A DNA stretch of 64,000 nt, taken from Chloroflexota bacterium. GTDB lineage: Bacteria; Chloroflexota; Anaerolineae; Aggregatilineales; Phototrophicaceae. The stretch is taken from positions 5,445 to 69,444 of the forward strand of contig JAPOYT010000174.1 of the NCBI GenBank assembly GCA_026706445.1, in the 5' to 3' direction. Shown piece after piece: positions 23,300 through 26,386 of the stretch (position 1 is the first letter of the stretch; every line of letters begins with the position of its first letter). Both the position numbers and the translations under genes were made by a program. Under the pieces are notes generated by a model that saw only the letters and a program-made list of their open reading frames with translations, had not been told where the DNA came from and did no database searches.

Positions 23300-26200
23300 C
23301 TAGCCGACGCGCAAGACCGTATCCTCCAAGACCTCCGCCAACACATCCACGAAGAGATCGACCTGCTCGCGTCCGAAGCACATTGGCGGCTTCAGCTTGA
23401 GTACGTTGTGATGCGGTCCTTCCATGCTGACCAGGATGCCATGTTCTTTCATTCGCTCGGCGATATAGGTCGCTTCCCAATCGGCCGGCGCAAGCGAGAT
23501 CGGGTCGCGAACCAGCTCGATACCCAGAAACAGCCCCGAACCGCGTACCTGTCCGATGATAGGGAAAGACGCGGCTAAATCACCTAAGCGCTCGATCCAG
23601 TAGGCGCCGATGTCGCGAGCCTTGCGCTGCAAGCCTTCGTCCTGGATGATCGACAACACTTCCAAGCCGATGGCGCAGGAAACCGGATTGCCGCCGAAGG
23701 TATTGAAGTATTCCATTCCGTTGTCGAAAGCGGCCGCGATTTCCGGCGTGGTGACAACCGCGCCTAAAGGATGGCCGTTGCCCATTGGCTTGCCCATGGT
23801 GACGATATCGGGAACGACGCCGCTTAGCTCGAATGACCAGAAATGATCGCCCACGCGCCCGAAACCGGCCTGAATTTCGTCGGCGATGCAAAGGCCGCCG
23901 GCTTCTCGCGTCATCTCGTAAGCTCGCTTGAGATAGCCCGCAGGCAAAGGCATCTGACCGCCGCAGCCCATGATCCCCTCCGCGATGAAGGCAGCCAGCT
24001 TCCTTTCTCTCGCATGAACTGAGGCGATCTTCTCGGCGACCGAGCGGGCGTAATACCGGCCGGCGCGCGCGTCAAAACCGCGCTGCGGTCCGCGAAAGCC
24101 GTCGGGCATCTCAGCGACTTCGACGTGCGCGGGCCTGCCCCGTCCACCCGGTCCGTCGAACTTGTAGGGACTGATGTCGATCAGCGCGCTGGTATGCCCA
24201 TGATAGGCATGGTCGATGACGATGAAATCCGCTCCGCCGCTGTATGCGGTCGCCAGCCGCAGCGCCAGTTCGTTGGCTTCGCTGCCGCTGTTGACGAAAA
24301 AGCAGACCGTCAGCGGCTCGGGCAGCGTCTCCGTCAGCGCCTCGGCGTATTCCACCAGCGTATCATGCAGGTAGCGCGTATTGGTGTTGAGCAGCGCCAT
24401 CTGATCGTGCGCGGCTTGGACGACGCGCGGATGGTTATGCCCAACATGAGCGACATTATTGACGCAATCCAGAAAGGGCTGCCCATCTTCATCGTACAAA
24501 TGACGCATGAAGCCGCGCGTGATCTTCAGCGGCGCCTGATAAGAAAGACTCAGCGCCGGATTCAGCGCCATCCGCCGTCGCTGGATCAGGTCGGCGCGCG
24601 CGGACTTTGCCGGCGGCCGAATCGAATAGGGCAAGCCTAAGATATGATTGGGATCGGGCGAGAGCGATGTCCACAAGGCGCGTTGCTTGGGCGCGCAGAC
24701 GCCCGGGAAATTGTCGTCGTAGTCGAGCAGATCCACGACGATCTGAAAGTGCAGATGCGGCGTCCAATTGCCGTTGCGCGGATAGTCGCCGATGCGCGCC
24801 AGCAAATTGCCCGCTTCGACCCAGTCGCCGACCTCCCAGCGTTCCAGCGCGCTTGGCGACAAGTGTCCATAGAGCGTGTAGAAGCAAAGGTCCGGCTTTG
24901 GCTCGTGCTTGAGAATCAGAATGGGACCATAATCTTGCTCGTCGGCGCAGTCGGCCAGGCTGTGGATCGTGCCCGCGAGCGGCGCGTATATCGCCGTCTC
25001 CGGCGGCGCGAACAGATCTGCGCCGAGGTGAACCGCGCGGCGCTGACGATGATCAATGGCGAACATGTCCGCCAGATAAATCGGACGAACCTCATCATAC
25101 AAGCCGATGCCGATCGTGTTCTCGCCCAGACGCCGGCGCAGCGGCTCGCTATAAGTCGCCGGGTCAGCCAAATCCTCTACCTGCGCCAGCAATCGGCTGG
25201 TCATGCCGCAATCGACAATCTTGCTGTTGTCCACTGTCAGCGGCTTGCCGAGGATTGGCTCAAGCGATTGGGCATCGAGCCAATCAATCAGGGCAGCGGT
25301 CTGCGGGCAGGCGGGCAAACCGCAGGCGCTGCGGAAATGGTAGTGGGCGCAATTCGGGTTGATTGCGCGCAACTGTTCCAATAGTTCCCAGGCGCCGCTT
25401 TCGCTGATGCTCAAATGGCGATTGTCGGGCTCCCGCTTCTGCTGATGCCAGGAGATGCACAGGCTGAGGCAGAGGCGCGCGCCGATCAGCGGGAAGAGCA
25501 AACGGAGTTCTTCTTCGCGCAGCGGGAAGGCGCCATGATAAGCGCGAACGACGGAAGTCGCTTTATCCAGCGGATTCTCGCTCCCCATCATGATGTAGGC
25601 CAGGGCGACCGCGAGATCCGCCATTGTCGGTCCGTAGACCATATCGCCGAAGTCGATCATGCCGGCGACCTGTGGCATTGCCGGACCCTGCGCGCGAACG
25701 AGGATGTTGCTGTCGTTGGGATCGTTGTAGCTGAAGCTGTGGCGCAGCTGCGGCAGGGCGGGCGCGACCTCGTCCTCGTACAAGCGCAGAAAGGTTTCCA
25801 GAAGCGACTTCTTGGCTTGCGGCAGGTCATCGCCGTAGCGCGCGACCTGGCTGAGATTGCCGATGTTCCAGCGATAATGCAGCCGTTTTTCGTCGTGGCT
25901 GAAGCCTTGCATCGCGGCGCTGAGCTTCCCCAGCTGCCTCCCGATGTCAGCGAGCAGCGCGTCCGAATGCGGGCGGAAGTCGCATAAGGGGAGGCCCTCG
26001 ATATAGCGCAGCAGGCGGGCGCGGTAGCCCTCGCCATCTTCGGCGTGGATGCGGATTGTGTCTTCGCCGCTCGCCGCCGGAATGATTTGCGGGAAGATGT
26101 CCATTGTTTTGCGCAGGTGTTCCAGCGTCTTGTTCTGCAGGTCAAGCACGGAGTCGGAAACGCTGCGGTGTGCGATTTTGAGCAGGTATCTCTCGCCGCT

Positions 26201-26386
26201 TGCGTTTTGCAGTTGATAGTTGCGGTCGAGCTCGGAAGGCAGCGCGCGGACGGCAGTCGGCTCGAAATTGTAGTATGTCTGCGCGATGGCGCGCGCTTCG
26301 TCGGGCGAGATTGGCGGGCGGAAGTTCTCTTCCATCGAGATCATGTGGCGGTCTCTTCGGAGTTGGCTTGTTGTCGGACTTATCAT
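23300..26386 (-). CDS. Tri-domain fusion: APH-type small-molecule kinase + M23 (LytM) peptidase-like domain + class-III PLP aminotransferase/phospho-lyase-like domain
   Basis: 1028-aa single ORF. The kinase region shows [11 protein letters not shown] and IDFGDM. The M23 region shows VHLGADLF (HxxxD) and TPHLHFQIV (HxH). The aminotransferase-III region shows [18 protein letters not shown] and [15 protein letters not shown]. Confidence 0.8.

Follow-up and report, generated by a model that had tools for sequence, protein, structure and literature searches.

A Chloroflexota member of a three-domain family, predicted to join an amino-alcohol kinase to a phospho-lyase around an accessory M23 module

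The 64,000-nucleotide window analysed here (the whole stretch of Chloroflexota DNA to which all coordinates refer) encodes one polypeptide in which a kinase, an M23 peptidase-like module and a class-III aminotransferase-fold domain follow one another. Which reaction would such a protein carry out, and what could an M23 module contribute to it? Known M23 enzymes (LytM/lysostaphin-type) are secreted or act in the periplasm, as hydrolases or regulators of the cell wall. Judged by homology, this member of the NF004799 family is quite likely a self-contained catabolic enzyme of the cytoplasm, an amino-alcohol kinase joined to a phospho-lyase, with the M23 module as an accessory.

The gene lies on the minus strand, a strand assignment that the initial annotation did not give, and comprises the following features:

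23300..26386, minus strand: whole open reading frame, 1028 aa plus stop codon (23300-23302); NF004799, 1169 bits
25307..26344, minus strand: APH/hydroxylysine-kinase-type kinase domain, residues 15-360; Pfam APH, E 8.5e-21
25706-25726, minus strand: kinase catalytic loop NDPNDSN (D222, N227), from motif translation
25643-25657, minus strand: kinase motif IDFGD (D245), from motif translation
24617..25306, minus strand: middle M23 module, residues 361-590; Pfam Peptidase_M23, N-terminal extension of ~65 residues plus core
24737-25033, minus strand: M23 core, residues 452-550; Pfam, 49 bits against a cut-off of 28.7
25016-25030, minus strand: M23 motif HLGAD (H453, D457)
24860-24871, minus strand: M23 motif YGHL (H508)
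24749-24757, minus strand: M23 motif HLH (H544, H546)
23303..24616, minus strand: class-III aminotransferase-fold PLP domain, predicted phospho-lyase type, residues 591-1028; Pfam Aminotran_3, E 6e-75
23849-23881, minus strand: PLP-domain motif [11 protein letters not shown] (D836), from motif translation
23780-23800, minus strand: TMGKPMG with the PLP Lys K866, from motif translation

Pfam recovers all three domains above their gathering scores, in the order APH (residues 47-276), Peptidase_M23 (452-550, E 7e-13) and Aminotran_3 (619-1020), and translation of the exact coordinates returned every motif that the initial annotation had listed as a hallmark of its three modules. The protein scores 1169.4 bits with NCBIfam NF004799 (PRK06148), above the curated cut-off of 1128, and aligns with model positions 7-1011 of 1015 in the family's domain order of APH kinase, M23 and class-III PLP domain. 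As a sequence match to a full-length model of 1015 positions, this is far beyond chance, and the match was confirmed on the genome. With NF004800 (PRK06149) it scores 747, below the cut-off of 973. The databases name the first family 'hypothetical protein' and the second 'aminotransferase'. Full-length relatives occur in at least 587 species genomes from many bacterial phyla and some archaea, and named NF004799-family members include those of S. meliloti pSymB and Ruegeria sp. TM1040. The three-domain architecture is already catalogued in these two models, and the protein is an ordinary member of a known family. A search of the accessible literature found no enzyme assay of any three-domain family member.

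The N-terminal domain scores 75.2 bits with Pfam APH (gathering score 23.2), and its catalytic Asp, both Mg ligands (Asn and Asp) and ATP-binding Lys (K70) are present. Residues D222, N227 and D245 are invariant in 132 of 132 diverse representatives, and K70 is present in 128 of them. Stand-alone kinase relatives with 33-36% identity carry the JGI name hydroxylysine kinase, an automated name, and the next NCBIfam match beyond the protein's own family is homoserine kinase (E 3.5e-10). The kinase domain alone had no significant sequence match in the PDB. A role in aminoglycoside resistance was considered for the APH domain and rejected: among its named relatives, hydroxylysine and homoserine kinases are the closest, and the kinase is obligately paired with a lyase.

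The same pairing occurs as split genes. Plasmids of Paenarthrobacter, E. coli and P. mandelii each carry a kinase gene that lies next to a lyase gene or overlaps it; the products share 25-31% (kinase) and 42-44% (lyase) identity with the fused domains. All three clusters also contain SDR, transporter and regulator genes, pTC2 carries an aldehyde dehydrogenase as well, and a six-frame search of the three clusters found no M23 gene. Mallette and Kimber reportedly described an aminopropanol kinase from the mycobacterial RMM locus in 2018. This aminopropanol/aminoacetone locus is a comparable split kinase/phospho-lyase system (PMC4207490).

When the open reading frames of 80 related loci were clustered, no conserved neighbour of the fused gene emerged across 75 loci, as would be expected of a self-sufficient fusion. 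Among the 127 immediate neighbours no Pfam family recurred (MFS, the commonest, in 5/127; OCD/mu-crystallin in 2/127), and the neighbours were divided about 50/50 between the strands. Functional links to two nearby features were rejected: the adjacent HTH/PIN pair is syntenic in the close relatives L014 and L092 only, and across phyla neither this pair nor the peptide ABC transporter 7 kb away is conserved.

The middle module truly has an M23 fold, and its five catalytic and zinc residues are all in place. The AF2 model of the module alone has a pLDDT of 92.2, and its top 50 Foldseek matches in the PDB are all M23/LytM domains, with TM-scores of 0.57-0.69 where the match is an isolated catalytic domain. 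Close homologues, down to 50% identity, all have the pentad unchanged, and it is complete in 103 of 132 diverse representatives from bacteria and archaea. Since the zinc and catalytic site is complete, the module here has probably kept its ability to bind zinc. Despite its M23 fold it is, by location, not a cell-wall enzyme: the domain is internal, the N-terminus of the protein is hydrophilic with no hydrophobic stretch, and there is no cell-wall gene context. The module is missing from ~8% of lineages and its catalytic residues are lost in ~22% (the tree implies 15-20 or more independent events); lineages with a decayed M23 site retain their kinase and PLP residues. Because of these losses and its absence from the split systems, the module is, judged by its distribution, an accessory to the predicted kinase-lyase enzyme. 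The remark in the initial annotation that an intact M23 site has no obvious role in kinase-lyase chemistry was a fair one; its further suggestion was that the site might bind a peptide-linked substrate.

What the accessory might do can be approached in two ways. A non-catalytic role, to which we give a little less than even weight, would make it a scaffold or regulator that fixes the geometry of the kinase and lyase domains or of the lyase dimer. Its zinc site would then be structural, or it would bind a ligand but not cleave it; the degenerate LytM proteins EnvC, NlpD and SpoIIQ offer the parallel. The whole-chain AF2 model (pLDDT 92.9, pTM 0.90) suggests a fixed domain arrangement, and the tight inter-domain packing implied by its pTM would suit a scaffold. 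Consistent with this role are also the non-catalytic LytM domains among the structural neighbours (EnvC, DipM, SpoIIQ) and the repeated decay of catalytic residues without loss of the domain. However, the five residues are kept in ~78% of deeply divergent lineages and in ~97% of free-standing copies of the module, which would be unexpected of a pure scaffold, and two-domain kinase-lyase fusions without M23 exist that manage with a linker of ~20 residues.

These free-standing copies are the new element here. Sequence matches indicate that the M23 module exists as a large, widespread free-standing family of ~220 aa proteins without a signal peptide (40-50% identical, 722 matches), for example Vibrio tritonius WP_342609936.1. 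The HDHHH residues are kept in 94 of 97 free-standing modules, a figure biased by the selection of matches for similarity to the intact query, and a signal peptide was predicted in 0 of 97. The combination of HDHHH with a missing signal peptide suggests an enzyme in its own right, located in the cytoplasm. Ten free-standing loci, two of which (L096 and L097) represent the same Ponticaulis protein P0438 in identical context, showed no recurrent partner gene, and a kinase or lyase was adjacent in none; an MFS transporter adjoins two of the ten copies, one of them PTR2-type.

We therefore also weighed, tentatively, a catalytic role in which the M23 module works in the cytoplasm as a zinc amidase/peptidase and frees the amino alcohol from a conjugate before the kinase and lyase act on it. 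The conjugate could conceivably be a short peptide, an isopeptide or an N-acyl compound, and its release would expose the amine needed by the PLP domain. Such a role, if it existed, would extend the kinase-lyase explanation and not contradict it. It would account for the genuine fold, for a pentad that is intact here, invariant among close homologues and complete in most diverse representatives, and for free-standing copies that retain HDHHH, lack a signal peptide and in two of ten cases sit beside an MFS transporter. Against it stand the lineages that lack the module or its residues, its absence from all three split clusters, the decayed site of the sister family NF004800 (ADHFR in the S. meliloti member), the lack of a conserved neighbour of both the fused and the free-standing forms, and the selection bias in the 94/97 count. 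No cytoplasmic metabolic M23 enzyme is known to us, which also counts against a catalytic role; an M23 domain that lies in the cytoplasm with its active site intact would be without precedent in metabolism. That the module is a working cytoplasmic zinc hydrolase, and the fusion a three-step catabolic machine, is doubtful; if true, the M23 family would thereby gain its first metabolic role outside the cell wall. The free-standing family offers a simpler handle on the role of M23, and the question can be tested directly in S. meliloti and Ruegeria sp. TM1040, tractable bacteria that have orthologues of the fusion (on pSymB in the former, TM1040_RS02355 in the latter).

The C-terminal domain possesses the Schiff-base Lys K866 and the PLP-pyridine Asp D836, both found unchanged in 131-132 of the 132 diverse representatives. 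It matches human ETNPPL (6tor) with 494 bits and 54.5% identity and the Arthrobacter phospholyase A1RDF1 (5g4i) with 329 bits and 41.5% identity, whereas its best score against any true transaminase, decarboxylase or racemase is at most 183 bits. Foldseek on the predicted structure returned 6tor first (TM 0.96, rmsd 1.5 Å), followed by 5g4i (TM 0.95). All NCBIfam transaminase models score far below their own cut-offs. In a PLP-domain tree with ETNPPL and 5g4i as its phospho-lyase references, both enzymes nest within the fusion clade, and 5g4i pairs with a three-domain protein (SH-aLRT 98). Class-III transaminase paralogues from the same genome form a distant outgroup on very long branches.

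An ordinary omega-transaminase fused to an unrelated kinase is thus a highly improbable description of the protein. It agrees with automated names ('aminotransferase class III-fold') and with generic class-III family matches (E 1e-50 to 1e-77), but the domain is ~150-310 bits nearer to characterised phospho-lyases, these are also its nearest neighbours in predicted structure, and they nest in its clade while true transaminase paralogues fall far outside. The initial annotation had read the protein as an HYKK-like kinase joined to a PHYKPL/ETNPPL-like phospho-lyase; clustering of the C-terminal domain with GABA/ornithine transaminases, together with an inactive kinase domain, would by its own account have spoken against this. 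The C-terminal domain groups with ETNPPL and 5g4i, and the proposal is well supported because these lyases nest in the fusion clade and the split kinase and lyase genes adjoin; the names of the stand-alone kinases agree with it.

We infer the enzyme activity of the fusion from relatives, characterised or named, whose identity to it is 31-55%. First, the APH domain would use a nucleoside triphosphate to phosphorylate the hydroxyl of a compound with a neighbouring free amine, for which 5-hydroxylysine, ethanolamine and 1-amino-2-propanol are candidates. The PLP domain, by homology to characterised enzymes, would then take up the amine of the O-phospho-amino alcohol as an external aldimine, the cofactor being held by K866. 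Phosphate would be eliminated, and the resulting enamine/imine would hydrolyse to an aldehyde or ketone and ammonium. This chemistry would be that of an ETNPPL/PHYKPL-type phospho-lyase (EC 4.2.3.2 / 4.2.3.134) and not transamination. Fusion of the two domains may keep the phosphorylated intermediate local, and the M23 module, predicted to be rigidly packed between kinase and lyase, would be dispensable for the kinase-lyase chemistry as such.

Pointers to the substrate differ. The closest solved lyase acts on phosphoethanolamine, and the automated kinase names point to hydroxylysine. The split operons resemble aminopropanol/aminoacetone clusters. The S. meliloti context includes an amino-acid ABC binding protein and an Lrp/AsnC regulator, which hints at an amino-acid-like substrate. 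The gene is better read as a probable amino-alcohol kinase/phospho-lyase than as the databases' 'aminotransferase', and would indicate a B12-independent supply of nitrogen and carbon from amino alcohols, for example hydroxylysine, ethanolamine or aminopropanol.

The open reading frame is uninterrupted, and its 1028 aa are counted from the first ATG. Since almost every close homologue is 1014 aa long and begins at the residue matching M15 (MISMEENF...), M15 at 26344 (1014 aa), or else M18, is probably where translation really starts. The initial annotation had allowed for a stop or frameshift behind the fusion. An assembly artefact is very unlikely because independent assemblies (the 97%-identical 1014-aa P0002 and the 76%-identical L014) and hundreds of orthologues have the same architecture and length. 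Although the source is a fragmented MAG of 276 contigs and the gene of the close relative L092 is broken by a frameshift, an artefact or the read-through of a frameshifted pseudogene has next to no probability, given the unbroken frame, the end-to-end alignment with the family model, and the same length and domain order across the species genomes counted above, complete chromosomes included. The L092 kinase-M23 and lyase gene pair was considered as a natural fission and rejected; it is a frameshift, since the motif conserved at the M23 C-terminus is in frame with the second open reading frame.

Compared with known systems, the protein is a Chloroflexota orthologue of NF004799 with nothing substantively different. 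It is unlike members of NF004800, in which the M23 domain is shortened and its catalytic residues have decayed. The animal enzymes HYKK/AGPHD1, PHYKPL (AGXT2L2) and ETNPPL (AGXT2L1) perform the same two chemistries that are predicted for the fusion. Human ETNPPL is the nearest characterised relative of the PLP domain by the identity and TM-score given above and nests in the fusion clade, and the fused kinase domain is related to proteins with the automated name of the animal kinase HYKK. The animal enzymes are, however, separate polypeptides without an M23 domain, whereas the fusion is one chain that contains it. Veiga-da-Cunha et al. (2012, JBC) reportedly used the bacterial fusion as a clue to identify the human enzymes. 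The kinase-lyase reading repeats this logic and is not new, and neither is the architecture, which is catalogued and was reportedly the basis of that identification. A 2025 review cites the 2012 JBC paper (PMID 22241472) for showing how a gene fusion can reveal the functions of enzymes.

The split cluster of A1RDF1 (PDB 5g4i) on Paenarthrobacter aurescens pTC2 encodes a kinase and a lyase homologous to the fused domains in neighbouring genes. In the split clusters these separate genes are accompanied by dehydrogenase, transporter and regulator genes, whereas the fused gene has no conserved neighbours. With M23/LytM metallopeptidases the middle module shares the fold and the complete HxxxD...H...HxH signature. 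In contrast to them, it is internal to a predicted cytoplasmic metabolic enzyme, carries ~65 extra residues of its own at the N-terminus and groups with the separate free-standing family.

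The window encodes a three-domain protein that the initial annotation had described as a single 1028-aa polypeptide. The frame is uninterrupted, all three Pfam domains exceed their gathering scores, and the motifs listed for it are exact on translation.

Window 23300..26386, minus strand: fusion ORF, single frame of 1028 codons
Residues 47-276, minus strand: APH (kinase)
Residues 452-550, minus strand: Peptidase_M23
Residues 619-1020, minus strand: Aminotran_3 (PLP domain)

The true start is probably at 26344, as nearly all close homologues are 1014 aa long, their first residue corresponding to M15 (in two, to M18), and a weak purine-rich stretch lies upstream of the M15 ATG. 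The hydrophilic N-terminus indicates a cytoplasmic protein. The full-chain AF2 model has a pLDDT of 92.9 and a pTM of 0.90.

The family to which the protein belongs is known and catalogued, with its logic published as early as 2012, and the protein is an ordinary representative of it. Its match to NCBIfam NF004799 (PRK06148, 1015 positions) reaches 1169 bits, over the cut-off of 1128, while the sister model NF004800 gives 747 bits, under its cut-off of 973. A word-index search returned at least 7996 matches, the best 120 of which all carry the three Pfam domains and derive from Chloroflexota/Anaerolineae MAGs. Scanning one genome per species identified at least 587 genomes with a family member. 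Full-length copies occur in Chloroflexota, Acidobacteriota, Gemmatimonadota, Bacteroidota, Desulfobacterota, Nitrospirales, Alpha- and Gammaproteobacteria, Latescibacterota, Heliobacteriaceae and two archaea. The gene is patchy in Chloroflexota (14 of 251 genomes, 6 of 146 genera), where it is in every case a fused frame of ~1000-1300 aa; the window's own genome has one copy. Sinorhizobium, Ensifer, Shinella, Tritonibacter and Ruegeria sp. TM1040 are among the cultured bacteria that carry the gene. In 2012, Veiga-da-Cunha et al. reportedly took bi- and trifunctional bacterial homologues with an APH-type kinase as a hint to the function of AGXT2L1, AGXT2L2 and AGPHD1. A 2025 review presents that study (PMID 22241472) as an example of gene fusion revealing enzymatic functions.

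The closely related locus L092 carries a split gene call.

L092 5001-8047: kinase-M23 ORF (567 aa) and lyase ORF (448 aa), overlapping by 4 nt

Its kinase domain is 70% identical to that of the fusion protein. The conserved PGVCSP...WTALSPDPNL stretch falls in the frame of the second ORF, so the split is due to a frameshift, which reflects a sequencing error or marks a pseudogene.

The C-terminal domain is predicted to be of the phospho-lyase type, not a transaminase. Its top PDB sequence match is human ethanolamine-phosphate phospho-lyase (ETNPPL; 6tor, 494 bits, 54.5% identity over 422 residues), followed by Arthrobacter phospholyase A1RDF1 (5g4i, 329 bits, 41.5%), whereas all transaminases, decarboxylases and racemases score at most 183 bits. 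The same two structures superimpose best on the full-chain model (6tor, TM 0.96, rmsd 1.5 Å; 5g4i, TM 0.95). A maximum-likelihood tree combined 145 PLP domains (50%-identity representatives) with 6tor, 5g4i and four class-III paralogues from the window's genome. Both enzymes fall inside the fusion clade, ETNPPL adjoining a two-domain fusion (SH-aLRT 86) and 5g4i a three-domain fusion (SH-aLRT 98), while the transaminase-type paralogues form a distant outgroup on branches of 3-4.5 changes per site. Clustering with ordinary transaminases had been named as the result that would count against a lyase, and tree, PDB scores and superposition together favor the lyase.

The kinase domain appears to be the functional partner of this lyase. 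D222, N227 and D245 are invariant in 132 of 132 diverse representatives, and K70 is present in 128. As a query, the domain retrieves proteins of 330-355 aa that stand alone (33-36% identity, E 1e-38 to 1e-43); JGI gives them the automated name hydroxylysine kinase. Its next NCBIfam match beyond its own family is type-II homoserine kinase. The lyase has a gene of its own on Paenarthrobacter pTC2 (the A1RDF1 locus), an E. coli IncFIB plasmid and a P. mandelii plasmid, and in each case a gene for an APH-type kinase lies next to it or overlaps it. The proteins of these split clusters are 25-31% (kinases) and 42-44% (lyases) identical to the fused domains. The kinase-lyase reading of the initial annotation thus gains support from the PLP-domain tree and PDB matches, the conserved kinase residues and the adjacent split genes.

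The M23 metal site, likewise described as intact, has all five zinc and catalytic residues (H453, D457, H508, H544, H546; HDHHH), which are invariant among homologues down to 50% identity. Residues 360-599 alone are modeled at a pLDDT of 92.2, and the 50 best PDB structural neighbors are all M23/LytM domains. M23 is recognizable in 128 of 151 representative clusters (50% identity); in ~12 others a short linker joins kinase and lyase as a two-domain protein, and ~10 have an insert of ~200 aa in which M23 is no longer recognized. The pentad is complete in 103 of 132 long representatives. On the PLP-domain tree, M23 presence/absence requires 10 changes (at least three forced by well-supported branches), pentad decay 20 and zinc-triad loss 15. 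A six-frame search of the three split clusters found no M23 sequence. Sinorhizobium meliloti pSymB carries both family types.

L095 5960-13142, S. meliloti pSymB: NF004799 member (HDHHH, M23 intact) and NF004800 member (ADHFR, M23 decayed in a shortened domain), 1.2 kb apart

Kinase and PLP residues are intact in both copies, and NF004800 represents a decayed-M23 lineage. Absence from split clusters and two-domain fusions, together with repeated pentad decay, marks the module as an accessory of the kinase-lyase core, although most lineages have kept it. We tentatively favor a scaffold or regulator, as the structural neighbors include the degenerate regulators EnvC, DipM and SpoIIQ. They also include the active enzymes LytM, lysostaphin, EnpA, ShyA and LysTt72; an active hydrolase would fit the intact pentad here but not its recurrent decay, and is rather unlikely. 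Some other role, or one fitting neither description, is equally doubtful.

This analysis newly finds that the M23 module also occurs as a free-standing protein. On a Vibrio tritonius plasmid, a 223-aa protein that keeps HDHHH aligns with positions 358-574 of NF004799 (E 4e-49); its gene and the end of an MFS transporter gene overlap. With an E-value limit of 1e-15, the module as query retrieves 722 proteins, mostly of 210-245 aa and 40-50% identical, the level of identity seen among fused copies of different phyla. The full pentad is present in 94 of 97 free-standing proteins versus 101 of 129 fused ones (Fisher p = 3e-5, indicative only because the samples were drawn differently), and none of the 97 has a hydrophobic N-terminus. 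Both features point to a putative autonomous cytoplasmic zinc enzyme. No recurrent partner gene was found at ten free-standing loci, two of which (L096, L097) hold the same Ponticaulis protein, P0438, in identical context. Databases label this family (locus L093 6992-7663; proteins P0385-P0499; ~220 aa, without signal peptide, homologous to the fusion's middle module) as murein endopeptidases; its location is apparently cytoplasmic.

A toxin-antitoxin pair follows the fusion gene, and a divergently oriented PMT-like membrane protein is encoded upstream.

Window 22762-23214, minus strand: HTH_17 (excisionase-type) gene, directly downstream of the fusion gene
Window 22188-22772, minus strand: PIN_3 gene (194 aa), overlapping the HTH_17 gene

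In L014 and L092, both close relatives, the pair likewise follows the orthologous gene; this arrangement does not extend across phyla. Across 75 related loci there is no conserved neighbor (no family in more than five loci) and neighbor strands are ~50/50, in keeping with a self-sufficient fusion but of no help in naming a substrate. Other genes in the window include possibly disrupted ones.

Window 30329-31276, minus strand: IS-type integrase (rve/rve_3), adjoining the 310-aa enolase-superfamily ORF
Window 31310-32242, minus strand: enolase-superfamily ORF, 310 aa
Window 28963-30096, minus strand: full-length enolase-superfamily paralogue, 377 aa, adjoining an SMP-30/gluconolactonase gene
Window 20518-21990, minus strand: four-carbon acid-sugar kinase-like ORF, 490 aa (SBD_N + NBD_C)
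Window 16688-18763, plus strand: 691-aa ORF, flanked by a peptide-type ABC transporter ATPase pair on one side and by a CoA-transferase gene on the other

The 310-aa ORF, which matches the MR_MLE_C profile up to position 170 of 219, looks truncated by the IS insertion next to it. The acid-sugar kinase-like ORF may contain a frameshift near its 3' end; its NBD_C match reaches position 125 of 168, and the final ~70 residues resemble out-of-frame sequence. The 691-aa ORF has no Pfam match at E 0.001.

The pSymB pair flanks a gene for the binding protein of an amino-acid ABC transporter and adjoins an Lrp/AsnC regulator and hutC/hutF; it is a convenient genetic system for the family. The binding protein and the Lrp/AsnC regulator there, and OCD/mu-crystallin genes beside 2 of 127 loci, are weak hints that would suit a substrate resembling an amino acid, for example hydroxylysine. 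A hydroxylysine-like compound is our leading, still tentative, candidate for the fusion enzyme; ethanolamine or aminopropanol is possible, if less probable, and another compound is unlikely. Each of the three split clusters encodes an SDR oxidoreductase, a transporter component and a regulator, with an aldehyde dehydrogenase also on pTC2. This gene set matches the amino-alcohol (aminopropanol/aminoacetone) catabolic loci described in Rhodococcus and Mycobacterium (PMC4207490; Mallette & Kimber 2018).
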